From positions 20,033,590 to 20,097,589 of the forward strand of contig CM119264.1 in assembly GCA_051294375.1 (NCBI GenBank): a stretch of 64,000 nucleotides of DNA, read 5' to 3'. Both the position numbers and the translations under genes were made by a program. Below, in pieces: positions 4,001-59,600 of this stretch (position 1 is its first letter; every line of letters begins with the position of its first letter). The stretch is from Paraspadella gotoi. Taxonomy: Eukaryota; Animalia; Chaetognatha. The notes under the pieces were generated by a model that did not search any database, had not been told where the DNA came from, and was given only the letters and a program-made list of their open reading frames with translations.

Positions 4001-7000
4001 ATACCCAATCTTGGCCATTCCTGATGAACTGCGAACAATTAAAGCAGGCACTGGAACAATATTTGAAATTCCATATTATGGTCATCCTATTCCTACAGTA
4101 AAATGTATACATAAAGAAAAAGATCTGGATCAAAAAAGGCGTCGAATCGATCATATCCATGGAAAAATGATTAAATTAATCCTCAAGTAAGTAAGGAAGT
4201 ATTATTGTTTCAGAAACTCATCCTATATTTGAGATACTAATAGTTATAACTATGTGTTTATTTTATATTTGTCACTTTCATCTTACTCATCTTTGGAAAT
4301 TTACTTAACACCAATAAAAATTTGTAAATAAACCAAGTTGTTTCAAAAAATCTCAGGGACTGTGTACGCTCCGATTCTGGTGAATACTCCCTCACAGTTA
4401 AAAATGAAAACGGGAAAGCTGAGGGAATTGTTAAACTAAATGTTCTTGATAAACCTGGCCCGCCTCGCAATCTTGGATTTAGAGAAGTTTTTAGTGACCG
4501 AATAGTGTCTGAGTGGGACTTGCCTTCAGATGATGGTGGCTCGCCAATCACTGGATATTTGATAGAAAAAAAGGAGAAAACACGATCAAAGGTAAGTAAT
4601 ATCTGTTGAAGGTAGTTCGCTATTCCCTCTATACTTTTATCTTCCTTATCTTTGCACACACAGCTCAAGTTTACAGAGAGGAGAAGAGTTTTTGTTTTAG
4701 CCGTTTTTACATAGAAGAAAAATATTTTTGATTTTATCATTTTGTTTGTCAGCCTCATCACAGTGGTTGGTGAATGAGAAGAAGTTCAGTACAAGAATAT
4801 AGCGATTTCAAGTCTCAATATTAGAAGAAACGAAATTTTCGTGGAACAACAAAAAAATTTTATTAACATAAAATTTGGACATGTTTCGGCTTTGTTCTTC
4901 AAGCCTTCATCAGCATTTGAAAAAGACAAAATTTTTTTTTACAAACATTGAGTTGGTGTCATCTGTTTAGAGAGGAAGACTGTCTTGTGCTGTCCCATGA
5001 CCAAAATTGGTTCTCAAGAGGTATTAGAGAGGCAATCTACATCAAAGCCCTCGAGCCCTCTTTGAACCGTGATGGAGGACGATTCGATCTCCCTCCAAGC
5101 TATGATTCGTTAATCAAAACTGTGGTGGAGCACCCAACGCCACCTCAGCCGCACGGTGATTCCCCTGTCGGCCCGCAATTCCATTTTTAATGGAATGACG
5201 AAAGAGTTGGGAAGAATTCTCAACTCTCTCGTCGGAAACCAACACCACCTCAGAAATTCTCTCGATCTGACGGAAAAGTTGCAACAAATCAAAGTGCCCG
5301 ATACTCATCTCTTGGCCTCATGCGACTTACAGAGCATGTTCACTAATATCCCTCAGGGACNNNNNNNNNNNNNNNNNNNNNNNNNCACAACACGGCAGTA
5401 AGTAGATCTTGTAAAACTGGCAGTCTTCCCATCAAGGTTAAAGGAATATGCGCCATTCTATTTCACAACGTTCCGTGCTTCATAATATATTAAAAACTGT
5501 TGCTCCGCCATCAATTTTGGTGGTTTCCATGTTAATCTTACTAGCTTCTTTTGTAATCAAGCATATTCACCTTAATTGGTGGAGCCAGGACGCGCCTAAA
5601 AATAAAAATTAATAAGTAAATATATGAGAAGAATATCTGGAAGATTAGACAATTTACGTAATTTATCTGCAATCAACTTACTGTAAAGGATCTTTGCTGG
5701 TAAATCTGTTGGAATGGTTTGCTTGGATCTGACAATCCTGCCTTATTTTCTGAATAAACGCGTATTCATATTCATACCTTCAATTAATTCAGAATCAATG
5801 TATTTGAGATGTGGTGTGGCTGATTTAGTAATCGTTGCCACCTAAAAAACAGTACAGATATTGTTCGAATTTCTAGAAATTAATTTCAAGTAATCAAAAA
5901 TATATATATTTTTATCAAGTACCGGGGAGATTCAGTATGAACGTCTTTCAACAATATATAGCCATTATAGGTGAACTCCATCTGATAAGGAATAGTCCAA
6001 GCTAGCGTGGCAGAAGAAGCATCAACATCTGATACACTTGGGTTTTGTGGAGGTTCTGGTCTTTTAAATGGATTTTGAACTTTAACTGGTTTGCTTTCAG
6101 TAAAGTCTCCTACTCCGAATTTATTAATGGCAGCAACCCTAATAATATATTCTTGCCGTTCCTTGATGCCAGAATCAATTGAAAAACACATAGCTCCATC
6201 AGTTTCTCCAACTTCGTTAAACTATAAATAAAAAAAAATTATTTAATTTTACAGTTACTAAACCTCTTCCAACTTGCTCGGATTTTCAGAGTTAAAATTT
6301 TCATAAGTAGTTAATTGTTTAATTCAACAGGTCGTCAATTGTTAAGCTTACATTGTAGTGACGTAGTATCACTACCGCGTTTGATAAGGTTGTTACGTCT
6401 ATCAGCGATGTAAAAGATGAAAAATTCCAAGACCTAATTGGCACTGGCACACTAGTGTGTGGACTTGGGGGTAGGGGTTGAAAAATAACGAAATATAACA
6501 AATCAAGTGAGGTACATAGCTATTTTAGTGTAATTAAAGTCTGTAGAATTAAAATCTCATCTTCTTTGTCGGAATGGCGATTTTTGCAGCATATAAGGTA
6601 TATCAAAATGGAGCAAACATTGTAGAGTATAAGAAACTCAAATTATTAAGATTTTTAAAAAGCCATATTTAACTTACATAATATAAAAATAAAGACCCAT
6701 ATAAATATTTTGGTAAGTTTTCGTTACAAATTTTATATTTTTTGTTTGTTTCGCTATATTTATTAATAAATAATAATAAAAAAATAAGCTAAAGTAAAAA
6801 AAATTAAAAAAATTAAAATTTTAAAAAACCAGATTTGAATTCCTTAAAAAGTTGTATAAAGAAAGTAAATCCATTTTAAAAAAATTATTTTATTAAGTAG
6901 GTTAAAATTATTAAAAACTATTATTTTTATTTAATTTTTTTCAATTTTTGGCTTAAAATTATAGTTTTTCTAAATTTTGACCACTTAATGACATATTTTG

Positions 7001-10000
7001 ATATAAAAATTATATTTTCTTATATCAACTTTTTGCAAAGAATGCAAATCCATGAAAAAATTTTTGAAATTATTTATTTATTATTAAACCTAATTTTTAC
7101 TTATAATTATTAATAAATTTAGTTAATAACTTTTAATAAAACATAAAATATAGAAATAAACTTACCAAAAATATTTTTATAAGTCTTTATTTTTATATTT
7201 CAAAAGCTCATATAAAATTTTAATAAAATTTTAATAATTTGATTTTTCATTACTTATAATGGTTTTGTTATTTTATAACAATTTTATATACATTAAAAAC
7301 CGTCATTTCCGCACAGAAAGATAAAATTATACAAAAGAATGGTCATCACCATCGGAATTCTACAGACTAACATTACACTAAAATAGCTATGTACCTCACT
7401 TGATTTGTTATATTTTGTTATTTTTCAACGCTCCACACTGTGGAGTCTATCTCACCATTCGGAAGGGAATATGGGAGATCCCCCTTTCCTCACGGTCACT
7501 TTAACACTCCGATGTCTATCGTGGCTACAAAAACCACCGACGAAATAAGAAAAACGCAAACCAGCCCAAAACTACATCTCCTCACTCTCTCTCTCGTGAC
7601 ATAATTCTTTGTTTTAATATGAGACTTTGTGTTAATCCTTTCTTTTTATCGAGCCAGGATTGCTTCTTTGTGACGTCGTCGTCGTCGTCGTCGTCACGCT
7701 GTTTTTTATATAAAAGCTACTACGCTTTTTTATAGGTTTGGCTGTGACTTACCGTTTTTTTTAAATAAAAATTATTATGAATTATGATAAAGTTTTACAA
7801 AAGTGTACGACCATAGTAAGTTAAAGTTAGTTAATTTAGATATGGCTTCTCATCTTGAAATAGCTTTGATATTTTCTTATTACATTTGGATTTAAGTATT
7901 TTTTGTTTGAATTCCACTTCATTATGATTTACTGCAATATGCAAATGAGAATATAGTACTCATTATAATATCCAAATTAGCATATAGAAATGCTTTAATC
8001 TAATTTAATATTGCAGTATATAATATTGAAGATTAGAGAAAGACAAAGTTTATTTGTTTATGTACAACATTTATTTTTACATAGGACATGTTTCGGCTTA
8101 AGTATAAGCCTTCATCAGCGTTTGATTAATCAGACAATTTTTTCTCTTAACATTGAGTCAGAGAGAGAGAGAGAGATTGAGAGAGAGAAAGAGGAGAGAG
8201 AGAGAGATAAAGCTTCCACAAAGGTTGAGATAAGGAACGTGGTCAGATTGAGGACAGGTGAAGGTAAGGAGAGAGAAGAAGAGGAAAGTGGTTGAAATGT
8301 GAATAGTGAAAATTTGAAGAGACAGAGAGAGAGAAAATATTTACATTTTTGTAATGTACAACAAAGATAAAGGAATAAATAATTCAATAACAATAAATAA
8401 ATAGACTTAATGCTTAACTAGTAGATTTAACGTAGAATATTTTAACTAGTTTGTTAATTAAGATTGAAATAAAGAGAAAGAGAAAAGAAGAATGTGTGGT
8501 TAGGGATAGCTAAGTTGTAGAATTAGAGAAAATAAAGATAAAGAAAAGAGCTCAAAATGAGCTGGCCCTCCCCCCGGCCTGGCAAAAGCAGGACGTTGAT
8601 GATATGATCGGGTCATTGACTTGTCATGGGCTGAGAGGGTATCGTCATGGATCGAGATTGTCCAGGATCTGGTAACGAGCCGCCTGGAAAAAAAATGCCC
8701 AATGCCACTCTGATATCCTCTGGCCTGATAAGCCTGCCGAAGTCCCTCCTCTCGCCTGATGCGAGGCGGGGCAAAATGCTGTTCTGGCCTGCTTTGCTGC
8801 AGGTGATACAGACTCTTTCCCTCCTCCTGCAGCGCGTCGTTTTGGGCGACGTCTAGTGTGAGAAGAGTCACACCAAGGTGCTGTAGGTTTGGGAGAGGTA
8901 TCGTGCATCCATGCCTGCTGGGGAGGCCTCCGTCTGACCCGTTGAGTGGGGACAGGGGAAATCACCGTGCGGTTGGGTGGTGCTGGGCGTTCCACCTCGA
9001 TTTTAAATTAGCCGAATCATAGCTTGGAGGGAGGTCCATCGTCCTCCATCACGATTCAGAGAGGGCTCGAGGGCTTTGATGTAAATCGCCTCTCTAATAC
9101 CTCTAGTGAAACCAGTTTTGGTCATGGACAGCACAAGACAGTCAGTTTCTCTAAACAGATGGCCGGAGGTTGCTGTGTGCTCAGCAATAGCCGATAAGTA
9201 ATGACCACGTGGGTCCGATATGGCTTTGTGTGCTGTTTGAACCGATCTGACAGAGACTTTCCTGTCTCGCCACAGTATGCTGCCTGTGCAGGGTTGGTTG
9301 CCCTTCCCTGCACAAGGCGCCCAATAGACGGCTCTCTGAAGTGTTTGGTCTGGGAATTTATCTTTCGGTTTCACCATTGCTCACGTAAAGAGCCGCGGGC
9401 CATCACTGAGGTGGAGATTCCCTGCTTTGCTAAACACCCGCACCAAATGGCTCAGTGATCCCCGGTGGTAGGGGAGGGAGATATGGCCCACGTTCTTGAG
9501 GCGCTTCTGCTTATCTCCCACTTGCGCTGTGGTGGGCGCGGTCAGCCTTCAGCAGCAAGGCCTCCGCTCTTCCTCCTGGGGGGCAGAGGTTGAGCTTCCG
9601 TCAGCGGTTACTTGGGCAGCCCAGGGTGGCCACTGCCCTCAGCCTGGTTCAGCCGGAAGCCTTGCCTTTTCGTAAACCCACAGAGGGTAACCATTGAGCG
9701 CCAAGGCTCTTTGAGACATGCTCAAGCTCGGCGGCCTGGAGCTCGGGGAGGTCGACGGAATCAGAAGAGCTCTTCTGGTAAGGGACTGACCGTGGCGAGC
9801 TTGTGCGACAAGGGAGCATGCGAATCAAAGGGAATGTATTGATCGGTATGGGTCGGGGTTTTCGGTAGACTGAGAATCCAATGAGCCGCCCTCTTTGCGT
9901 TGTATAAGCACATCAAGCATTTGGAATTTTTCCATTCACATCTTTTTCACATGTCACTTGATGCTCGCTTCAAAATGTTCAAATGGGAAATAGGGTATCG

Positions 10001-13000
10001 ACGAGATCCCTTCTCACGGCCAGGATGGTATCGTCTGCTTTGCGATACAGAAGAGAACTGACTCTGCCCATGCAGAGATCGAAAAGAAGCCAGAGCTTCC
10101 ACCTCATAGTCTCCATGTAAAAATCTGCAGAGGACTTGAAGTTGATTTGCCCATCCCTAAGCCACCAGGTGGGCATAATACTGTCCATCGACTGAAGTAC
10201 GCCAGTTCCAGGTCGAGCCCGCAACAGTGCCATGATATCATCCAATTGGATTGGCGTACGCTCGTGCAACAGCCGGTCTCCCTTCAGCGGCGTTCTGCGG
10301 AGGCTAACGCCAGTCCCCCTACCACCAGGGGATCACTGAGCCATTGGTGCGGGTGTTAGCAAAGCAGGGAATCTCCACCTCAGTGATGGCCCGCGGCTCT
10401 TTACGTGAGCAATTGGTGAAACCGAAANNNNNNNNNNNNNNNNNNNNNNNNNNNNNNNNNNNNNNNNNNNNNNNNNNNNNNNNNNNNNNNNNNNNNNNNN
10501 NNNNNNNNNNNNNNNNNNNNNNNNNNNNNNNNNNNNNNNNNNNNNNNNNNNNNNNNNNNNNNNNNNNNNNNNNNNNNNNNNNNNNNNNNNNNNNNNNNNN
10601 NNNNNNNNNNNNNNNNNNNNNNNNNNNNNNNNNNNNNNNNNNNNNNNNNNNNNNNNNNNNNNNNNNNNNNNNNNNNNNNNNNNNNNNNNNNNNNNNNNNN
10701 NNNNNNNNNNNNNNNNNNNNNNNNNNNNNNNNNNNNNNNNNNNNNNNNNNNNNNNNNNNNNNNNNNNNNNNNNNNNNNNNNNNNNNNNNNNNNNNNNNNN
10801 NNNNNNNNNNNNNNNNNNNNNNNNNNNNNNNNNNNNAAGCCCTCGAGCCCTCTCTGAATCGTGATGGAGGACGATTGGACCTCCCTCCAAGCTATGATTC
10901 GCTAATTAAAATCGAGGTGGAACGCCCAGCACCACCCCAACCGCACGGTGATTCCCCTGTCCCCACTCAACGGGTCAGACGGAGGCCTCCCAGCAGGCAA
11001 TGGATGCACGATACCTCTCCCAAACCTACAGCACCTTGGTGTGACTCTTCTCACACTGAGCGTCGCCCCAAAACGACGGCTGCAGGGAGGAGGGAAAGGA
11101 GTCTGTATCACCTGCAGCAAAGCAGGCCAGAACAGGCATTTGCCCGCTCGCCATCAGGCGAGAGGAGGGACTTCGGCAGGCTTATCAGGCCAGAGGGATA
11201 TCAGAGTGGCATTGGCATTTTTTTCCAGGCGGCTCGTTACCAGATCCTGGACAATCTCGATCCATGACGATACCCTCTCAGCCCATGACAAGTCAATGAC
11301 CCGATCATATCATCAACGTCCTGCTTTTGCCAGGCCGGGGGAGGGCCAGCTCATTTTGAGCTCTTTCTTTATCTTTATTTTCTCTAATTCTACAACTTAG
11401 CTATCCCTAACCACACATTCTTCTTTTCTCTTTCTCTTTATTTCAATCTTAATTAACAACTAGTTAAAATATTCTCAGTTAAATCACTAGTTTAAGCATT
11501 AATGCTATTTATTTATTGTTATTGAATTATTTATTCCTTTATCTTTGTTGTACATTACAAAAATGTAAATATTTTCTCTCTCTCTGTCTCTTCAAATTTT
11601 CACTATTCACATTTCAACCACTTTCCTCTTCTTCTCTCTCCTTACCTCACCTGTCCTCAATCTGACCACTGTCCTTATCTCAACCTTTGTTGGAAGCTTT
11701 ATCTCTCTCTCTCTCTTTTTCTCTCTCTCAATCTTCTCTCTCTCTCTCTGACTCAATGTTAAGAGAAAAATTTGTCTGATTAATCAAACGCTGATGAAGG
11801 CTTATACTTAAAGCCGAAACATGTCCTATGTAAAAATAAATCGTTGTACATAAACAAATAAACTTTGTCTTTCTCTAATCTTCAATATTATATACTGCAA
11901 TATGTAAATTAGATTAAAGCATTTCTATATGCTAATTTGATATTATAATGAGTACTATATTCTCATTTGCATATTGCAGTAAATCATAATGAAGTGGAAA
12001 TTCAAACAAAAAATACTTAAATCCAAATGTAATAAGAAACTACTCAAAAAAGCTATTTCAAGATGAGAAGCCATATCTAAATTAACTAACTTTAACTTAC
12101 TATGGTCGTACACTTTTGTAAAACTTTATCATAATTCATAATAATTTTTATTTAAAAAAAACGGTAAGTCACAGCCAAACCTATAAAAGCGTAGTAGCTT
12201 TTATATAAAAACAGCGTGACGACGACGACGACGACGACGTCACAAAGAAGCAATCCTGGCTCGATAAAAAGAAAGGATTAACACAAAGTCTCAATATAAA
12301 ACAAAGAATTATGTCACGAGAGAGAGAGTGAGAGAGATGTAGTTTGGGCTGGTTTGCGTGTTCTTATTTCGTCGGTGGTTTTTGTAGCCACGATAGACAT
12401 CGGAGTGTTAAAGTGACCGTGAGGAAAGGGGATCTCCATATCCCTCGAATGGTGAGATAGACTCCACAGTGTGGAGCGTTGAAAAATAACAAAATATAAC
12501 AAATCAAGTGAGGTACATAGCTATTTTAGTGTAATGTAGTCTGTAGAATTCGATGGTGATGACCATTCTTTTGTATAATTTTATCTTTCTTGTCGGAAAT
12601 GACGGTTTTTAATGTATATAAAATTGTTATAAAATAACAAAACCATTATAAGTAATGAAAAATCAAATTATTAAAATTTTATAAAATTTATATGAGCTTT
12701 TGAAATATAAAAATAAAGACTTATAAAAATATTTTGGTAAGTTTATTTCTATATTTTATGTTTTATTAAAAGTTAGTTAACTAAATTTATTAATAATTAT
12801 AAGTAAAAATTAGGTTAAAATTAAGAAATAATAATTTCAAAAATTTTTTCATGGATTTGCATTCTTTGCAAAAAGTTGATATAAGAAAATATAATTTTTA
12901 TATCAAAATTATGTCATTAAGTTGGTCAAAATTTAGAAAAACTATAATTTTAAGCCAAAAATTGAAAAAATTAAATAAAAATAATAGTTTTTAATATTTT

Positions 13001-16000
13001 TAACCTACTTAATAAAATAATTTTTTAAAATGGATTATACTTTCTTATATCAACTTTTTTAAGGAATTCAAATCTGGTTTTAAAATTTTAATTTTTTAAT
13101 TTTTTTACTTTAGCTTATTTTTTATTATTATTTATTAATAAATATAGCGAACAAACAAAAAATATAAAATTTGTAACGAAACTTACCAAAATATTTATAT
13201 GGGTCTTTATTTTTATATTATGTAAGTTAAATATGGCTTTTATAAAATCTTAATAATTTGAGTTTCTTATACTCTACAATGTTTGCTCCATTTTGATAGT
13301 ACCTTATATGCTGCAAAAATCGCCATTTCCGACAAAGAAGATGAGATTTTAATTCTACAGACTTTATTACACTAAAATAGCTATGTACCTCACTTGATTT
13401 GTTATATTTCGTTATTTTTCAACGCCCTACCCCACAGTCCACACACTAGTGTGCTCAGTGCCAATTAGGTCTTGGAGATTTTTCATCTTTTACATCGCTG
13501 ATAGACGTAACAACCTTATCAAACGGGTAGTGATACTACGTCACTACAATGTAAGCTTACAATTGACGACCTTTGAATTAAACAATTAACTACTTATGAA
13601 ATTTTAACTCTGAAAATCCGAGCAAGTTTGGAAGAGGTTTAGTAACTGTAAAATTAAATAATTTTTTTTTATTTATAGTTTAACGAAGTTGGAGAAACTG
13701 ATGGAGCTATGTGTTTTTCAATTGATTCTGGCATCAAGGAAGGCCAAGAATATATTATTAGGGTTGCTGCCATTAATAAATTCGGAGTAGGAGACTTTAC
13801 TGAAAGCAAACCAGTTAAAGTTCAAAATCCATTTAAAAGACCAGAACCTCCACAAAACCCAAGTGTATCAGATGTTGATGCTTCTTCTGCCACGCTAGCT
13901 TGGACTATTCCCTTATCAGATGGAGGTTCACCTATAATTGGCTATATTGTTGAAAGACGTCATACTGAATCTCCCCGGTACTTGATTAAAATATATATAT
14001 TTTTTGATTACTTGAAATTAATTTCTAGAAATTCGAACAATATCTGTACTGTTTTTTAGGTGGCAACGAATTACTAAATCAGCCACACCACATCTCAAAT
14101 ACATTGATTCTGAATTAATTGAAGGTTATGAATATGAATACCGCGTTTATTCAGAAAATAAGGCAGGATTGTCAGATCCAAGCAAACCATCCAACAGATT
14201 TACCAGCAAAGATCCTTACAGTAAGTTGATTGCAGATAAAATACGTAATTGTCTAATCTTCCAGATATCTTTCTCAATATATTTACTTATTTAATTTTAT
14301 TTTTAAGCGCGTCCTGGTCCACCAATTAAGGTGGAATATGCTGAAGTTACAAAGAAGCTAGTAAGATTAACATGGAAACCACCAAAATTTGATGGTGGAG
14401 CAACAGTTTTTAATTATATTATTGAAGCACGGGAAGTTGGTGAAATAGAATGGCAAATTCTTAACCTTGATGAAGACTGCAGTTTAACAAGCTTCACCTG
14501 CCGTGGCCTTAAAGAAGGTAAACTAGATAAAAAAAAAGATATTTAAAATAATTCTTACAATGAATGAATAGTTTCGGTTTTCAAATTCATTTGTTAGTTT
14601 TAAAAAATATGTACAAGATCAATATACGTATCTAAATGATAATTTTTATGGAATATAATCATAAATATTTTAAAATCTAAAAAACTTTAGGTGGTGAAAC
14701 AAGTAATTTTGCAATTGTCATAACATAATATACATAACAATTTATAAACTTTTTGTAAACCTAGTATTTTTGAGGGCTTTCATAATTGGATTTGATAATA
14801 AAAATGGTCATATTTTCCGAAAGCACCCCATTACAGTTTAATTTAATTGTTTTTTCCTATTTCTTACATATTTTTCTCTCTCTTTCTTTTCTTCTCTTTT
14901 TCTTTCTGCTTATCTCTCCATCTTACTAATTTTAATTATAGCTGGGCTATTTGTAAATTCAATTCTGGATGTTAAATGCCAAAAGGAAGGACATATTACC
15001 GCTTGAAATTTGCTAGCTTCTGAACTTCGGATCTGACTATAGTCCCCCATCACCGGTGGGTTAGACGTCCCGTTTTGCTTACTGGCATTGACACCAAGGT
15101 CGCTCGGTGGGAAGAAAGAATGCTCGCTTTTACAAAACCGGGGTTGCAATATTATTGTTAGGCAGATAGCAAAAGTGAATGTGTTGCAACTGTTGAATAA
15201 AAATTATAATTTGAATAAAATTTAAATAAAAATTGGAACATGCGGTAGAAATCCAATTTTAAAACAATTTTTAGCCAGATCTGCTCATAGCAGATTCCGG
15301 CTCTACAATTCACTTTGCCGGTCCTTCGCCCCACCCCCCCTAATCATATTGGTAAACCACTTAATTCATCTCAAAACTTCGAATTATGATAAATTATGTA
15401 AAAAATCGATATCTGTGCGTCTGTCAATCCATACGTCCATACCCTGTAAGCTTTAAACTTATGAGTGGATAGGGTGATTGACTTGAAATTTAGTGTGTGG
15501 GTAAAGAAGTTTGTGATTAAGCTGAAAATCAAGTTTTGATAGAATCGCATGAGTGAAAATAAGCTCATATGAAAACAAGTTTGAGCAAACAATGTCGGAT
15601 CTGCCTACGATAATTTAGTACTAAGCAGTAGGGTGAAGTAAAAGTTTTGAATCAAAAATTAGCAGTTGTATCTTGAAAACTCATATTAATAAATACTAAT
15701 CTATAGTTATTATTATTATTCTTTTTTACAAATATAGTAGCCCAGTCAGCTTTTATATGGTTAAAAATTTAAAATGGTTTTTTTTTTAATTCTGAGAATA
15801 GATTCAGATTCTTCGTTAAAAGTTGATAAAAGGCAATATAATTTTTTTTTAAATTATGTCATTAAGTCGGTTAAAATTATAAAAATTATATTTTTAAGCT
15901 GGAAATTAAAAGTCAGCATTTTCAATTAAGTTTTTTATATTTTTAACCAACTTCATAAAACAATTTTTAAAAAAGAATTATACTTTTTATATTAACTTTT

Positions 16001-42800: not shown

Positions 42801-45800
42801 AAATTTAAAAACCACTCTAGGGCATGTACGAAGGTCTCCCCTAATGATTCGAAGTAGTTTCCCGAAGGATAGGAATGGCTGAAGAAGACTCGTATGTGAG
42901 TCGAAACATGTCCGTTTCACTTAAAATAAAAGCGTTGTTTTCCCTCTTATCAAAACTTTGTTCATTAATTAATAATAATTAATTAAATAATAATCATAAT
43001 AATAATTAATTAAATAATAATGATTTTAATTTTATAATAGGACTGAATAAAACAATTATTTCTCAACAGCATAAAATTATTTAATGCATTCAAATACTTC
43101 CAAAAAAATTTGTCTCCAACTGTTTTCACCTCTTTTTGATCAAGAGGATTATTGATATTATTATTAATATTATATCATAATATTTTTTATCAGATCTAGG
43201 GCAAAAAATGATCCTTAGCAAGCAGTAAAAAAGATTTATCCCCTATAAAATAAACCAGGCTTGAATTGTTGCTGCATAATGTGATGATGCAATCTTGATT
43301 TTTTTTTGTCTTGTTTGATATTTGGTTCTGATAATACATCCAGAAGTAAATAAAAATGATAATTTTGCTCCTAGAAAGCTTACCCGGAGCCCTATAACTT
43401 TTATTGATACTTTATAATATAAAAAAACGCTAAGTGATTGCGACGATAAAAATATTCTGGAGCATCTACAGCATTAATGTATTTCTAATACTGCTCTTAA
43501 CATATGACATATGAATTAAGATTCATCTCTGAATCTATCCTAATGAAGATGATGCAATAACCAATTGACATGAGACTGAGAAAAGGCAGGAATTTTTAAT
43601 AGTAACAGTTTAACTCAAAAAGGGAATCGGAAATTAGTATAAATAAAAAGTAGATATAAAAAAGATTTAAAAAAAGGAAGCATTTTTGGACAACTCATTT
43701 TTTTTACATAGAACTCATGTATATTTTGTTGTATATAAATAAAACATATTTCATATTAATCACAAAAGCCCAGTTTCTCGATATCTAAATTTTATTTTTT
43801 GATTCTTACATTAAAATGCCAAAAAATAGCTGAAAAGTAACCGCGACAATTTTTTTTTTCCATCATGGTAACGGACATGATTCAACTATTTTTACCAGTC
43901 TAAAATGAATTTAAAATTTCTCTCTCTCTCTCTCACTTTTATGAAATGTTTGGCAAAAAATTCTTAAATTCACCTTGCTCGAAAAAAGAATCGAAACATG
44001 TCCGTTTATTAAGAGGAAGGGTCATAAAGCTTAACAATGAGTAGAGTACACTTCAATATAATACAACTAAAAAATGAAGAAACTTTTTCGAAATTATTCT
44101 CATGATATGGTTGTTAAAAAATTCTAGATAAAATGTTCAAATATGGTAAATTTAAATTTTGACGAGGAGAGCACAGAAATTAATCTTGTTACTTCGTTGG
44201 TTTCCACTAGTTAAAAAGAATGATAATCAAAAAGAGTCGCAGCCTGCATGTCTTTCTATTAATTTTTTCGAATTACCCCGTGAGCAAAATCTAGTTACAC
44301 GAAAGAAAAATCATTGCCATGGTTTACTGCATCGAGATAAACGTAAGCTTTTTTTAAATAAATATGAAATGTTTGAGGTTTTTTCTGTTACAATTTTTTT
44401 AAATTGATCTTTATTAATAACTGGAAACTGAAATTTTTTTTGCAAATATGTCAAAGTCGTCAAATTGATGGCTCATCGCATCTCTTAATAATAAAACGAT
44501 TTTGAATAATTTTTAATAAATAAATAAATTTTTAATTTTTAATTCAGTTCTCCAGCTCCAGCTCAAACTCCATTTCCGGCAAAAAAGTTTTATTACTTTT
44601 ATTTTACTCTATTTTTCATTTGTATTTTAGAGCCTCCTGGTATTCCACGTGGTCCTATTAATATTAGAGATGTAACCAGCCAATCTTGCGTGATTTCATG
44701 GTCAACGCCACTTGACTTAGGAAATTCTCCTCTTTTGGGTAAGCATAAAAAGGTATATGTATTATTATATTATTTTACAATCCAGCATTAAATTATTAAA
44801 CTGCTAAATAATATTTTGTTAATTATTTTTAATTTGACCTAATAAAAATTACTATAATAATGTATTTATTTAATAATAACGATATTTAATTTTTTTTAAA
44901 GTTTTATCCCAATTATCTTCAAATTTTACAAAATATTTTAACACTTTTTCAAGTGTTTAGAAATCTGTTTAAAAATAAAAAGTTTTGAATGTTTACTATA
45001 CTTTATATCATTTAATAATACAATGCCTCGGTATATCAACAATACTATGAATAAATATAAAAAGTTTTATTCAAAAAGAATTAATAATAATATTGTGGAA
45101 GACGATGCACACAAGGTCCCGAACTTCGGATCGGGCTGTAGTCTGACACTACAGGTGGGTTAGACGCCCAGACCCGCTTTTGCTTGTGTGAATCAGCAGG
45201 GCGCGAACCCGAGTCCTTTGGGTCGGGAGGAACTCGTGCTACCTCCGGCGCCATAGGTGCTGCTGATTCTCGGATGAGTAGTGGGGTATGAAATACTACC
45301 ACTACAATATGTAGTGTTTGGTAAAGTGAAAAGTGATAAATTTTGTTATGACCTTATAAATTACGTTGTTTTTATCCAAGGAGAGCGGTTATTTTTCAGT
45401 TACTTTTTAAGTTACTTTTAAAGATTCTTGGAACGCCTGTTTTTCAGGTTATAATGTTGAAGTAAGAAATACAAAAAATAAAGAATGGTATCACCGCGGA
45501 TTTTCAAGGGGCTACTTTAACTCGCTAATGGTCGATAGTCTTGCTGATGGTCAATCATATGAATTCAGAATATCTGCTGAAAATAAAATTGGGATCTCAG
45601 CCCCATTATATTCCGAAACATGTGTAACTACAAGGAGGTAATTAAATTAAGCAACAGATTAAAAGAGTCTATTTATGTTTTTGAGTGATATTTTATTTTC
45701 AATATTTATTTTGTTGTTGTATATCATTTCAGCAATTTACAACTTCCTCTTCCACCACCTGGAACGTTGCAAGTTTCGAATATAACTCATGATTCTGTTA

Positions 45801-50640: not shown

Positions 50641-53600
50641 TAATAAAGATTCAAGTAAATGTAACTTATGTTTTTTTCCATTTAAACTCATTTCCACTGG
50701 CACAATTCGTCAAAACTTTATATCTAGCTTCTTCACACACTTTCCTACCCGCTCACAAAATTTCATTTCAATCTATTATTGGTTAAAATAAGTAAAAAGA
50801 TTCAAGTAAATGTGACTCATATTTTTTTCATTTAAACTTATTTCCACTCGTACGTTTCCACCGAAACTTTATATCAAGCATCGATACACATTTTTCTACC
50901 CACACAAAATTTTGAACTCAATCTATCCATCCAATTATAATTAATTACTAATTAGAGTACTTATTGGTTAAAATAATTAAAAATATTTAGTAAATGCGAC
51001 TTATGTTTTTTCCTCTTAAACTCACAGATTCCGTCGAAACTTTATATCCAGCTTTATCACACACTTTCCTACCCACACACAAAATTTCTTTCCAATCCAA
51101 CACACATCACGAGTTATTGGAGCTTTTTGCTAAGGTGGGACGGATTAATTATTATTGATTAATTAATTGACTAATTGATTAATTAACTGATTAATTATTT
51201 GATTTATTAATACATCCTGGATATACATTTAATATAAAAGGAAAAAGAATTATAATCAATTAGTGAAACAGGTTTTTTTGTGTTTTTTCCATTTAAACTC
51301 ATTTCCACTCAAAAGATTCCATCAAAAACTTGGTTTCCTGTTCAATCACACACTTTTCTACTCACATACAAAATTCCAGGTCAATCGATAATTAAGTGGT
51401 AATAAGCTAACTTGGTCAACTTGCATAATTTAATCAATTGGCATAATTTTATCAACTGGCAAATTTTATCAACTGGCCTAATTTTATCAACTGGCCTAAT
51501 TTGGTCAACTGGCCTAATTTGAACAACTTGCAGAACTTGATCAACTTGCAGAATTGGTCAACTGGCATAATTTGGTCAACTTTAAGAATTTGGTCAACTG
51601 GCATATTTTTGTCAATTGGCATAATTTGGTCAATCAATCAATCAATCAATCAATCAGAGAAGAGATAGAGAGAAACTTTAAAAAATTCAAATAAATGTGT
51701 CTTTTGGTTTTCTAATTTGAACTCTTTTCCACTCCTACGATTCCATCAAAAAATTTATATCCAGCTTTATCACATACTTTCCTACCCACACACAAATTCC
51801 ATTTCGATTTATCTATCCAATTTTTAATAAACATAATAATTATGAGTAAATTTAAGTAAAAATACTTCAAGTAAATATGACTTTTGTTTTTTCCATTTTA
51901 ACTCATTTCCACTCGCACGATTCCATCGAAACTTTATATCCAGCTCAATCACACACTTCCACCCATCATACAAAATTTCAAGTCAATTGCCCTATCCACT
52001 CATGAGCAATTGGCGTTCAAATAGTGAAATATATTTTTTGTTTTTTCCATTTAAACCAATTTCCACTCGCACGATTCCCTCGAAACTTCATATCCATCTC
52101 AATCACACAGTTTCCTACCCACACACAAAATTTCATACCAATCCATCCATACAATCACGAGTAATTGGAGTTTTTTGCTAAGGTGGGACGGACGGACGGA
52201 CGGACGGACGGACGGACGGACAGACGGACGGACATCGTTTTTTTTTGCATAATTTATCATAATTCGATGTTCTGACATGATATAAGTGTGTGCCCGACAA
52301 TATTGAGGGGCGGACCGACGGACCGACAAAGTGAGTTATAGAGTCGGGATCCTGCTGATAAGCAGATCCGACTAAAAAAAGAGAGACAGGAAAGAGAGAG
52401 ACAGAAAAAACAAGTTTGAGCAAACAATATCGGATCTGCCTACGATAATTTAGCGGTAAGCAGCTAACCAGATAACTAGATCAAAATATTATAAATCATA
52501 ACAGATTTTTAAATTAATCAATATTGAGAAAGGTTTATTATTTTGCCAATACAGCGATTTTTAAAATTTCTTCAAAAAAATGTTGGCCTTTCCTATCTAT
52601 AAATACAAATTAAAAAATTATTTACTAGGGTATAGACTCAGAACCAGCTTAAGTTAAAGGGTCAAACGTTATGCTTTCAGCTTTTTACCCACCCCCCTGG
52701 TCACTTGGTCCCCTTAAAGATTCATATTATGCGAGGAAGACTTTTGCCAGCATTGCCTACATCCTAGAAATCGCTCACCAGCTGGTCAATGGAACCACTC
52801 TGGTCTGACTCATAAGGAATTCTGTAATAAAAGAATTGACTGGGTACAGTAATTTCAAATTACTCCAAAAAACAACAACACTTGAAAATCCGCGAGTCCC
52901 ACCAAATCCGTCGCCAGGACAGCGGACAAGGACACGGCCTCACGACGACTGGGGAGCCTACATACGCACCTCTGCTTGCAATCCCGTTATTCATTCAATG
53001 CTATAACTTTGTGAATATGTTACTATGGGGAGCACCCTTTATTGGGTCTTTTAAATCTCTCTGATTTGACCATATTCTCTCACCTTTTCTCTGTATCCCT
53101 CTCACTCTCTTTCTATGTCTCTCTCTCTCTCCCTTTTCTAATTAAATCTATCAATTTTCCCTCATTCCACTGATAAAGTTATGTGAAATACATGACGAAA
53201 TATTTAGAAAACAGTAACCTTAAACCTTATAATGAGATTACTTAAATTTATAAAAAAATTTAAATAACAATTTTAGGTGTACCAGGAAAACCACAAGGTC
53301 CTCTCAAAATATTGACAAAAACCGCAAATTCCATCGCTATCTGTTGGGGTCCACCTTTAGATGATGGAGGAAAAAGTTTAACTGAATATTTCATACAATA
53401 TTCTCTCTTCAGGGTAACAGGTATGGAAGTTACCATTTAAGTGTGTAATCAAAATTAAGCAATTAATTCTTAAAAACTATTCTATCAGTGAATATTAATT
53501 TGTACTGTATTCATTTTTCTTTTTAAAAAAATTTTGTAACATTGACCAAATTTTGTATGCACGACTACCATTGTATATTGCTAAAATTTAAAAAACGTGA

Positions 53601-56600
53601 AGAGACAGTAATTTCTAATTATTGTTGCGTTAGTGACAGAACCGTTCAATATAAGCAGTCCCTGAGCTTCGGAACAGGCTGTAACACCATGTTACAGGCG
53701 GGTTAAGCGCCCCGACCCTCTTAACTGTTAGGCGACCACCGGGCTGGAACCCCGAAGCTTTGGGTTGGGAGGCGAATGACACCAAAGGCCACTGATGAAC
53801 AGTTGGTGGATTTTAGCCCACCATAAACGGCATATTCGTATTTCTTGTAACATTAACAAACCATTAACGAGTTTCTTTGTGTGCGGAGAGAGAGAGAGAA
53901 AGAGAGAGAGCGAGCGAGAGTAACCAGCTTCTTTAACAATGTAAAAATTAATTTCATAATACTTTTAAATTGGCATATATTTTCAGAGCATACGTGTCAC
54001 ACTCACATACTTGAGCCTCATGACACTCGGATCTCTGACTGGATACTAGCCGGTTCTGTTGGACCAGACACTTTTAAATATACCTTAAGCAATATGCATG
54101 AAGGTTCTGGATATTACATTCGGGTGGTGCCAGTCAACGAACTCGGTAAGAGCACTTATTTACTTTCTATTAAAATATTTTATAATTTTTATTTAAATTT
54201 TAAATCACACGGGGGGGAAACACGGGCGAGAGGAATGGGAAACCCACACAATGAAAGATCAATTTAAAAGATGTGTCAGTCGATCCCGACGTGATTAGAA
54301 AGGAAAAACTTTCACTCTCACCGGTAACTGTTTTACCACTAACGCGAATTAAAAAGCGTCGAAATGACCGTGTCAATTTAAATCAAACCCGAAACCTTTT
54401 TCCCCGTTTTATGATTTCAATTATACCCCCTAAAATTGTACAATTTTTTTTCCCCGTCTATTTAACTTTTCCTTCTTTCTACGTACGAGGATTTGCTCTT
54501 ACTTTTTCTACTATGATCATTTTCCCTTGACTTTCTATAGAAATCTGTCTGTACCCATTACGCATTAGCTCTTCACGTTAGAGCGTTGAAAAATAACAAA
54601 ATATAACAAATCAAGTGAGGTACATAGCTATTTTAGTGTAATGTAGTCTGTAGAATTCGATGGTGGTGACCATTTTTAGTATAATTTTATCTTTCTTGTC
54701 GAAAATAAGGGTTATTTTAATGTATATAAAATTATTAAAACCATTATAAGTTATGATAAATCAAATTATTAAAATTTTATAAAATTTATATGAGCTTTTA
54801 AAATATAAAAATAAAGATTTATAAAAATATTTTGGTAAGTTTATTTCTAAATTTTATGTTTTATAAAAAGTTAGTTAACTATATTTATTAATAATTATGA
54901 GTAAAAATTGGGCTAAAGTTAAAAAATAATAATTTCAAAATTTTTTCATGGATTTGCATTCTTTGCAAAAAGTTGATATAAGAAAATATAATTTTTATAT
55001 CAAAATTATGTCATTAAGTTGGTCAAAATTCAGAAAACTATAATTTTAAGCCAAAAATTGAAAAATTAAACAAAAATAATAGTTGTTAATATGTTTAACC
55101 TACTTAATGAAAGAATTTTTTAAAATGGATTATATTTTCTTATATCAACTTTTTGTAAGGAATTCAAATCCGGTTTTAAAATTTTAAAATTTTATTTTTT
55201 TACTTTAGCTTATTTTTTATTATTATTTATTAATAAATATAGCTAACAAACTATTAATAAAATATAAAATTTGTAAATAAACTTACCAAAATATTTATAT
55301 GGGTCTTTATTTTCATATTATGTAAGTTAAATATGGCTTTTAAAAAATCTTAATATTTGAGTTTTTTATACTCTACAATGTTTGCTCCATTTTAATAGCA
55401 CCTTATATGCTGCAAAAATCGCCATTTCCGACAAAGAAGATGAGACTATACAAAAAAATGGTTATCGTCATCGAATTCTACAGACTTTATTACACTAAAA
55501 TAGCTTATGTACCTCACTTGATTTGTTATATTTCGTTATTTTTCAATGCCCTACTTCACGTGCATTGCTTTACACAAAATTGCAATTTTTTATGTTTTAG
55601 TCTTAATAAACCAGATGGCTATAAAAAATAAAATCATTTTTTAAAAACAAAATAGAAACAAAATTTAGTTTTTACGGTTTTAATATTTTTTTAAATGGAA
55701 ATTCAAAAAAAAATATTTGAATCGAAATTGTATTAATCCTTTCTTTTGTTGTTTGTTGAGATTAATTAAAAACGAAAATTTTCGTGGAACAACAATAAAG
55801 TTTTTATTAACTTTGGACATGTTGTGTTGTGAGCCGAAACATGTCCAAAGTTAATAAAAACTTTATTGTTGTTCCACGAAAATTTTCGTTTTTAATTGAA
55901 TCGAAATGAAACAAAAAAAATAGATACACATTTCAACTTCCCCACTGCCTCATTAATGCAATTTGATAACTAGATAGTTGAAAGTTAAAAAAATGCTGCA
56001 AGTTAAAAAAATTATCTAAGTTGAAAAAATTATGCAACTTGAAAAAATTATGCAAGTTAAAAAAGTATGCAAATTGAAAAAAATATGCAAGTTAAAAAAA
56101 TTATGCATGTTGAAAAAATTATGCAAGTTAAAAAAATTATGCAAGTTGAAAAAATTATACAAGTTTAAAAAATTATGCAAGTTAAAAAAATTATGCAAGT
56201 TAAAAAAATGATGCAAGTTAAAAAAATTATGCAAGATAAAAAAATTATACAAGTTAAAAAAATTAGGCAAGTTGAAAAAATTATGCAAGTTGAAAAAAGT
56301 ATGCAAATTAAAAAAATGATGCAAGCTGAAAAATGATACAAGCTGAAAAAATGATGCAAGTTCAAAAAATGATGCAAGTTCAAAAAATGATACAAGTTAA
56401 AAAAATGATAAACACTAAAAAAATGATAAAAGCTAAAAAAATAATGCAAGCTAAAAAAATGATACAAGCTAAAAAATAATACAAGTTAAAAAAATAAAAA
56501 AGTTAAAAAATAAGGCAAATTTAAAAAAATATTATTATTGCCGCAGTAACAGTTCAGTTTAAGCCTTTGAAAGTGATTTACATGTATTGGTGCAGCCACT

Positions 56601-59600
56601 GGTTATAATTATATTTATATCCTATTCTACTAAAAGACAAAGGAATATTCAAAATAAACCCACTTGATCTTCACTTGCACCTGCTCTTTAACAAAATAGC
56701 AATTGTTTAATTTTAATTAAAATTAAAATTAAAACTTTTAAAAATTTTTAATTTTTTTTTGTATTCCATTTTATTTTATTCTATTGTGGACGACACAAGT
56801 TTCAGAGTAAGAATGATTTATTCTTTAACAAAGTAAAATAACAATAACATTCACTAGGCTCAGATGCTAAGTCTATAACAATGGATATATACAAGGTCAA
56901 TGTTTGACCATAAAGAGAAAGAGCAAATGACCGAAGGTAAGGTTGAGAGTAAGGTTAATGGTTTAACCAAGGTTGCGTGTAATAGTTGTTCGTCCACACT
57001 ATTATTTATTCTATGTCTTGATCAAAGCAGTTTAATCATATATATATTAAAACAAAAATAATATTTTTTTGATTTATAAAATATTTTTTCAAGTACCAAA
57101 ATTTTATTAGCCCTTGAAAACGATTGTATTGGCGTAGCCACTGGTTTCTTTGCTGCTATCTTTCTGCTTATTTTCTATTGCCGTTTTTCGTTGTTTGTTT
57201 ACTACATTGTGAATGTACAAGAAGATTAACGGGCACCGACCTCAAAATAAATTTAATAGTTCACTAACTAATTTAAATAAAGCTTCTGAAGAAACAGAAA
57301 ATGTTTTGTTGCGTCCACAAGATATGATTTTAGGCGACATTCAAGAGTGTTCAAATAGTAACGCAAGTATCAGCAGTAGGGCGTTAAAAAATAACGAAAT
57401 ATTACAAATCAAGTGAGGAACATAGCTATTTTAGTGTAATAAAGTCTGTAGAATTCGATGATGATAACCATTTTTTTGTATAGTCTCATCTTCTTTGTCG
57501 GGAATGGCGATTTTTGTAGCATATAAGGTGCTATTAAAATGGAGCAAACATTGTAGAGTATAAAAAACTCAAATCATTAGGATTTTATAAAAGCCATATT
57601 TAACATACATAATATAAAAATAAAAACCCATATAAATATTTTGATAAGGTTATTTACAAATTTTATATTTTATTAATAGTTTGTTAGCTATATTTATTAA
57701 TAAATAATAATAAAAAATAAGCTAAAGTGAAAATTTAAAAAATTTAAAATTTTAAAACCGGATTTGAATTCCTTACAAAAAGTTGATATAAGAAAGTATA
57801 ATCCATTTTAAAAAATTCTTTCATTAAGTAGTTTAAAAATATTAAAAACTATTATTTTTGTTTATTTTTCAATTTTTGGCTTAAAATTATAGTTTTTCTG
57901 AATTTTGACCAACTTAACGACATAATTTTGATATAAAAATTATATTTTCTTATATCAACTTTTTGCAAAGAATGCAAATTCATGAAAAAAATTTTTAAAT
58001 TATTATTTTTTAACTTTAACCTAATTTTTACTCATAATTATTAATAAATATAGTTACCTAACTTTTTATAAACATAAAATTTTGAAATAAACTTACCAAA
58101 ATAATTATATATATATATATTTTTATATTTCAAAAGCTCATATAAATTTTATAAAATTTTAATAATTTGATTTATCATAACTTATAATGGTTTTGCTATT
58201 TTATAACAATTTTATATACATTAAGAACCGTCATTTCCGACAAGAAAGATAAAATTATACAAAAAAATGGTCATCACCATCGAATTCTACAGACTACATT
58301 ACACTAAAATAGCTATGTACCTTACTTGATTTGTTATATTTTGTTATTTTTCAACGCTCTAATTTCAGCAGATCCCGATTCTATAATTCACTTTGTCGGT
58401 CCGTCGGTCCGCCCCCTCAATCTTATCGGGCATTCACTTATATCATGTCAGAACATCGAATTATGATAAATTATGCAAAAAAATGATGTCCGTCCGTCAG
58501 TCTGTCTGTTGGATCTACTCCTACATGTCTGTCTGTGCGTCCGTCCATCCCACCTTAGCAATTATTCGTGATTGGATGGATGGATTGGAATGAAATTTTG
58601 TATGTGGGTAGGGAAGTGTGTGATTGAGCTAGATATGAAGTTTTGATGGAATCGTGCGAGTGGAAATGAGTTTAAATGTAAAAAACAAAAAAATATATTT
58701 CACTATTTAAACGCCAATTAGTAATTACTCATGGATTACTCATGAATTACTCATGGATTTTGCCTTAAAAAGCGAGAGGATTTTTGATATATTCTTTTAC
58801 TGGCCGATCAAAATGACGGGAATATTCGTATTATTAAGTTTCATATAATTCGGACTAAGAATAGAGAAAATATTTAAGAAAACTGAAGAGTGAGGAGGAC
58901 GGTCGAAGACGACTATGGCCGACGATTCGACCGACCTTTTCGTCCCCGTTAGGTCACTTGATACGACCGACATTTCTCTCTCTTTTTCTCCTCTTTATAA
59001 GTCGACACCGTTGGACGAAACTCTCACTCGAATAAACCTATATTTTTATAAACATTGTCTCCTTTTGCCAACGTCGCCATAAGAGAATCTATCCCTTTGA
59101 GGGAATAATTTCTGCATTCAACTCTATTGAAGATTTTTGCCGATTATGTGATCGTATAATATCAAAATAAATAGATAAAAGAAAAATAAAATTTGGCGAG
59201 CCCTTCAGACATTTTGACAAAGAATTCCTGAATTTGATGTTTTTTGTTGAACCCGAACTTAACCTAATCGCGTTCATAATGTTTGTAAGGGAAAAAATCC
59301 CTTTCATTTCTATATAAAATCAGAGAATACAAATTTTTTTTCAAAGGAGTAATCTATATGCCCTGGACGTGGTGGGGCGGTATATTCAAACCTCACATCC
59401 ACCGTCGTTCAGCTAATCCCATTGGCTCAGAGGGGGAACGCACCATCCCAATCGTTGCGTTGGATCCACAGTCCTAATGACTTCCCTCTGCGTTGGCAAA
59501 GCGAGACCGTCCTAGGGTAACCGCGTCACTGAGGGTCGGAAGCCCCCAAAGCGAACAGTGAGATGCCAATGGGCATCACAGGCAACCCGGCTTTTGCCAT

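Follow-up and report, generated by a model that had tools for sequence, protein, structure and literature searches.

On the minus strand of a 64,000-nucleotide stretch of Paraspadella gotoi DNA (the window), we found three copies of a roughly 220-base mobile element that contain, very probably, a twister ribozyme fold in the circularly permuted type-P5 order (Table 1). On balance, we read these repeats as solo LTRs from a Pol III TRIM of the Helenus type, likely retrozyme-like, with the twister as its ribozyme; within that reading an LTR/TRIM origin is probable, and intact copies elsewhere in the genome are predicted, with somewhat less assurance, to cleave themselves. The copies represent at least three families in one genome, two of them high-copy. 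The window is AT-rich and carries a twitchin/titin-like gene on the plus strand; all three copies sit in its introns, and their minus-strand reading makes them antisense to it.

Table 1. Positions in the window of the three copies and their predicted parts
Feature	Position	Strand	Remark
Copy A, solo-LTR-like element (family A)	45094..45306	-	TG..CA; contig depth steps at both ends
TSD ATAT of copy A	45090..45093, partner 45307-45310	.	flank sequence
Copy A, degenerate tRNA-like segment	45190..45269	-	10-bp acceptor-like stem
Copy A, A-box-like	T8 45253 to G19 45242	-	
Copy A, B-box-like	G53 45208 to C61 45200	-	
Copy A, CCC at tRNA positions 34-36	45227-45225	-	
Copy A, predicted twister fold, type-P5 order	45108..45190	-	P5 45183-45190 with 45108-45115
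Copy A, P2'	45177-45174	-	type-P5 alignment
Copy A, general-base G	45173	-	GA-T1' 45173-45169
Copy A, predicted cut	between 45162 and 45161	-	U^AA of type-P5 fold
Copy A, L4	45130-45123	-	fold also has P3, P4
Copy B, solo-LTR-like element (family B)	53598..53825	-	TG..TA on plus strand; loose contig ends
TSD AACG of copy B	53594..53597, partner 53826-53829	.	flank sequence
Copy B, tRNA-like segment	53735..53800	-	limits approximate; B-box-like 53750-53741
Copy B, predicted twister fold, type-P5 order	53654..53729	-	general-base G 53716
Copy B, predicted cut	between 53705 and 53704	-	
Copy B, L4	53673-53666	-	
Copy C (third family)	14970..15148	-	twister core inside; delimited as in the earlier note
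Copy C, predicted cut	between 15063 and 15062	-	about 5 bases missing from T1'/P1 strand
Copy C, L4	15031-15024	-	

The elements are high-copy and have sharp ends, as seen when contigs of public sequencing runs (X1, X2, X5, X8, and X9) were aligned to copies A and B at 80% likeness. In run X1, 870 contigs aligned to copy A, with a depth of 0 at 44922-45089, rising above 1.5e5 across 45114-45305 and dropping to 225 in the flank past 45330. Together with the flanking sequence, these steps bear out the TG..CA ends and 4-bp TSD (ATAT) that an earlier note on this DNA had given for the copy. The ends proposed there for copy B (53623-53852, TG..CA) had to be moved; no TSD lies at those positions, and the family's loose contig ends, with mixed flanks before 53598 and behind 53825, together with the flanking AACG duplication, place it at 53598-53825 with TG..TA termini. 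Copy B attracted 7,213 contigs in X1, with a depth of 0.6-4.4 million in the core versus about 170-270 in the flanks. Summed contig depth is not copy number; our rough reading is on the order of 1e3 copies for the A family and 1e4 for the B family. Copy C had been described as a degenerate relative at 14970-15148, and the conserved core is indeed present there, but there is no TSD at those ends (TGGA versus ATAT in the flanks). A covariance model built from the three copies brought up no further one in the window. Among the loose ends listed for families A and B, CTAT or ATAT recurs in the flank consensus adjoining the element ends, which suggests a target-site preference.

The fixed TG..CA or TG..TA ends, the exact 4-bp TSDs, and the absence of a poly-A or tandem tail weigh against a different origin, which we consider unlikely: an active twister in a single-unit, SINE-like or tandem-repeat element whose cut does no more than trim Pol III transcripts or reduce them to monomers, with no two-LTR TRIM behind it. 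Such an element would resemble the Pol III hammerhead repeats of Schistosoma or the animal non-LTR retrozymes, and repeats that combine Pol III with a ribozyme are reported from schistosomes (PMC6765202). In keeping with a single-unit element, we saw only single units and no two-LTR copy within the 64-kb window, and the listed loose ends mostly run into mixed AT-rich flanks. However, an internal promoter would cost a single-unit transcript the sequence upstream of it, and the copies retain about 40 bases upstream of the tRNA-like promoter part. A purine tract resembling a PPT also directly precedes the minus-strand TG in one loose-end consensus (9 X5 contigs, with an agreement of only 0.51), and it is the sole hint of a two-LTR form among the loose ends listed. 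The window contains no two-LTR copy with PBS and PPT of the kind that the earlier note proposed to look for, and no PBS occurs among the loose ends listed for copies A and B.

The tRNA-like segment reported earlier kept its box spacing, although ARAGORN (0 genes) detected no tRNA and Rfam gave none for the window or for copies A and B. In copy A, T8 and G53 are 45 positions apart, compared with 43-46 in five real tRNAs of one locus (L008), and T8, G18, G19, U33, and G53-T54-T55-C56-G57 all stand at their tRNA positions. A hand count from the loose ends gave the same T8-G53 spacing for family B; copy B itself lacks 10 bases of the A-box region at 53780 that the loose ends show in other copies. 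Since A14 and A58 have been lost (A58 is C) and the anticodon stem is unpaired, the segment reads as a promoter-like relic and not as a tRNA. By its sequence, this tRNA-derived segment is likely a Pol III promoter.

A conserved minus-strand core, UAA-CCC-RC-C(hairpin)G-(stem)-UCCGAAGY-(stem), had been noticed before in all three copies, and we recovered it at 45162, 53705, and 15063. The P2'-GA-T1' strand needed to complete a twister had been declared missing, with the suggestion that the fold might be completed only in a two-LTR or circular transcript. We found this strand 6 bases upstream of UAA, so that the element runs P2'-GA-T1'-P1-UAA-P2-RC-P3-P4-U.NNN.AA.GY, the order of the Rfam Twister-P5 consensus. 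(The reference consensus lines, for twister-P1 and Twister-P5, were those printed by an Rfam scan of fetched phage twister loci; P3 of the elements is similar to that of twister-P1.) The strand had looked absent because every window copy bears a private lesion in it. In most other copies, it reads GA-CGG and the fold is complete within one LTR, and a type-P5 permutation that closes in a single LTR needs no dimer or circular transcript.

The contigs document this strand position by position. UAA and the general-base G are present in all three window copies, and the A of GA is kept in copy C and missing from copies A and B. At 45172, other copies have T on the plus strand in 197,659/198,298 of the depth in X1, 13,650/13,680 in X5, and 845/848 in X9; X8, in which a single gapped contig makes up most of the depth, gives only 52/264 (20%). 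At 45170, they have C on the plus strand in 196,431/198,298 (X1) and 264/264 (X8), or 99-100% in four runs. The corresponding position of copy B, 53715, is T on the plus strand in 98.1-100% across four runs (2,011,128/2,049,942 in X1, 312,665/313,645 in X2, 370,322/370,448 in X5, and 52,737/52,782 in X9). The majority of A- and B-family copies therefore read GA-CGG, and all three bases of CGG are complementary to the loop CCG (T1).

Both pseudoknots can be followed across the families. T1 (CCG/CGG) is present in copy B as well as in the majority of A-family copies apart from A itself and, being invariant, offers no covariation, while T2 is AC/GU in copies A and C and GC/GC in copy B, a compensatory change. 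L4 (U-NNN-AA-GY) sits on P4 in all three copies, and P4 has 5/5 pairs in copy A and in the B-family majority, whose letters at 53674 (P4) and 53728 (P5) are the pairing ones. P5, read by eye, consists of three different stems, one per family, that enclose the core. The stem changes listed in the earlier note (UGUAGU/ACUACA versus UGUAAC/GUUACA, CCCG/CGGG versus CCUG/CAGG, and AC/GU versus GC/GC) are all present. Of the 21 pairs in the three-copy alignment, 5 show changes in both partners, a number that 1 of 500 shuffles reached and slid controls (0-2) did not, in a test of only three related sequences in which the 5' strand of copy C is misaligned by its deletion. A twister-half descriptor finds two of the three copies (copy C fails through one P3 mismatch), compared with a mean of 0.05 and a maximum of 2 in 100 shuffled windows.

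The G-U pairs of the stems lie on the minus strand and favor it as the RNA; on the plus strand they would be A-C mismatches. This bears on a reading that we regard as very improbable, namely that the plus strand is the functional RNA, with a T run behind a C(UUCG)G tetraloop, and that its likeness to twister is incidental. Every copy does contain the cUUCGg motif, and in A and C the core is followed by a T4 run; but it is the minus strand that carries the tRNA-like boxes, the PPT hint, and the complete twister order, and UAA and GA-CGG would be left unexplained. Several other ribozyme readings were set aside. A plus-strand hammerhead suggested by CUGAUGA near 53792 has no matching GAAA/stem II and no Rfam match, and Rfam gave no hammerhead in copies A and B or the window, where we find the twister fold instead. 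HDV-like, pistol, hatchet, twister-sister, and 5S readings likewise received no Rfam support.

The fold shares with the type-P5 twister (Rfam RF02684) the 5'-to-3' order, GA, UAA, U-NNN-AA-GY, T1, and T2, and differs from it in several details. P1 is one pair (G-C or G-U) closing 4 nt, where RF02684 has a long hairpin. The 5' strand of P2 is CCC, 3 nt and not 4, so that P2 reaches 3 pairs at most, one base being bulged, and a 4-bp P2 is absent. P4 is one pair longer, a closed P5 encloses the fold, T2 is AC/GU in two families, and T1 is CCG/CGG. The type-P5 examples that we retrieved are phage loci, whereas the element is animal mobile DNA. The Rfam searches proposed in the earlier note, with twister and tRNA models, returned only chance-level matches to the window and copies A and B, and no twister model matched those two copies, both lesioned, at E<=10. 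Nor did the three-sequence covariance model help, since real P5 twisters score no better than E~1 with it and it gave no significant match in 52 of 80 fetched loci. Because P1, the length of P2, and the Rfam score miss strict twister membership, we file the fold, on its sequence, as a variant. It would be a very compact natural twister, with a one-pair P1 and a bulged P2, that Rfam scans passed over in the window copies.

These departures could mean that the fold derives from a twister and is no longer catalytic, and that it persists because it signals packaging, dimerisation, or RT recognition to a helper element, a view that we hold to be fairly unlikely. The short P2, the one-pair P1, and the lack of an Rfam match would suit it, as would a subfamily that has lost the P2 pair adjacent to the general base (45174; 5,009/170,590, or 3%, in X1 and 108/506, or 21%, in X9). 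Against it, the bases kept across families that cannot otherwise be aligned are GA, UAA, U..AA, T1, and T2, while the P3 loop and P5 vary freely, and the catalytic and pseudoknot bases are those reported to be essential for cleavage (PMC11662667). Natural twisters tolerate imperfections in P1, P2, and P4 and are sensitive in their pseudoknots and catalytic bases (McKinley et al. 2024, PMC11662667), as assayed on type-P1 twisters and not on the P5 permutation. P1 has been reported to be dispensable (PMC5408937).

The window copies themselves are probably all dead or weakened. Copy A departs from the other copies at 45172 and 45170, copy B at 53715 (GA), 53674 (P4), and 53728 (P5), and copy C lacks about 5 bases around 15064-15070. 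Other, C-like contigs align ungapped over 45121-45179, with loose ends at 45121, and we infer that they belong to family C. The GA-CGG strand is hit in all three copies, and A and B share an A-to-U change despite belonging to different families. By chance, such damage would be expected at about 0.16-0.18 per copy for A and B and at roughly 1% for all three. As the copies are antisense to the host gene, selection against cutting of its pre-mRNA does not explain the shared damage. In family B, T1 is broken at CpG 53670 in 12% of X1 depth and in 3-5% in other runs. Minor variants of this family cluster at CpG sites (53670, 53699, 53709, and 53713-53714), which suggests methylation-driven decay after insertion.

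Among known elements, the closest counterparts are the Helenus TRIMs (TRIMp3; Kojima 2024, PMC10886601), which share with the element a short TG..CA LTR, degenerate tRNA-derived A and B boxes, a 4-bp TSD in animals, and many solo LTRs. Copy A has both TG..CA and the 4-bp TSD, copy B has the 4-bp TSD but TG..TA, and copy C has no TSD as delimited; by sequence, Helenus membership is likely. The non-autonomous Pol III-type LTR family with a twister-like fold proposed in the earlier note would fit the ends, the TSDs, the tRNA spacing, and the catalytic strand. In the Helenus LTRs consulted in the supplement of that paper, a T run usually comes after the tRNA-like part; in the element the twister takes this place. 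The whole text of PMC10886601 has 0 matches to "twister" and has "ribozyme" only inside a reference title. A term search of its supplement found the core motif in no Helenus LTR, in a file whose wrapped FASTA lines may hide a motif. In the same supplement (DataS1), two gall-wasp LTRs, Helenus-2_SyJa-LTR and Helenus-2_SyUm-LTR, carry 3' of the tRNA-like part what appears by eye to be a type-III hammerhead, with GUC, stem I, CUGAUGA, stem II, GAAA, and complementary loops; the paper makes no mention of it.

Plant LTR retrozymes (Cervera et al. 2016, PMC4918200) are likewise noncoding LTR elements with 4-bp TSDs, solo LTRs, and a self-cleaving motif in the LTR, and the circular-RNA cycle proposed below is borrowed from them. 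As described there, their motif is a type-III hammerhead and they have no tRNA-like promoter, whereas the element combines a twister with a tRNA-like part. Animal retrozymes are said to be without LTRs, PBS, PPT, and promoters (PMC7761336). A twister of reduced P1 in an animal retroelement is known from the T-variants of Schistosoma Perere-3/RTE (Liu et al. 2021, PMC8501958). Those have the type-P1 order and lie 5'-terminally in an autonomous non-LTR element whose TSD supplies P1; in the element described here, the twister has the P5 order and is internal to an LTR-like, noncoding unit. In the literature searched, mostly titles and abstracts and including PMC10085705, PMC13725137, PMC9695139, and PMC12542633, we found no twister in an LTR or TRIM or with a tRNA-promoter element; supplements of surveys may hold such cases. 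Within that literature, twisters are tied only to non-LTR retrotransposons and Helenus is described without ribozymes, and the element would join both with the retrozymes.

A circular-RNA cycle, argued by analogy and to our minds as probable as not, would use these parts as follows. Pol III would start at the tRNA-like box of the 5' LTR and read through to the 3' LTR, a read-through compatible with the lack of a T4 terminator on the minus strand in either LTR checked, A or B. Cleavage at U^AA in both LTRs would release a unit-length RNA without terminal redundancy. The P5 permutation would leave complementary ribozyme halves (P5, P2, and T1) on the two RNA ends, which would hold the ends together and favor ligation to a circle. 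An autonomous Gypsy-type helper, of the kind that animal Helenus are argued to use (PMC10886601), would reverse-transcribe the circle and integrate it with a 4-bp TSD. Solo LTRs would arise by recombination or from short cDNAs, as has been proposed for retrozymes (PMC4918200).

More tentatively, the sequences may define a class of animal LTR retrozymes that bring a Pol III promoter with them and rely on a minimal yet active type-P5 twister to excise and circularize their RNA. Expression cassettes that combine Pol III with twisters to make circular RNA exist, and the element would be their natural counterpart. For a Pol III-driven LTR element, it provides a testable account of how the RNA ends might be set without termination in the first LTR. 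If true, and taken with the gall-wasp hammerhead, it would mean that TRIMp3 elements have repeatedly acquired ribozymes of different kinds as a means of setting their RNA ends.

No relative outside the source organism was found among viral and metagenome contigs. The family pattern had 0 matches in the viral contigs, as did a version with a 4-nt P2. Its 18 matches in metagenome contigs were discarded as chance (none with 5/5 P4 pairs, GC of 0.49-0.70, and no twister match). The string CTTAACCCGCC, common to the element and the Ajax LTR, was also judged a chance match, with no other twister part beside it in Ajax. Two phage viral contigs (L067 and L079) showed two type-P1 twister matches back to back in one locus.

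The window holds other repeats as well. A 3.7-kb inverted duplication (95.6%; 5391-9076 and 10837-14505) flanks an N gap at 10428-10836 and may be real or an assembly artefact. Within it are host exons in inverted orientation (5682-6221, minus strand) and fragments that, judged by eye, resemble Penelope; four ORFs tested from the latter had no Pfam match. A palindromic, MITE-like repeat of about 1 kb is present in four copies (54578-55555, 57375-58362, 12474-13430, and 6471-7433).
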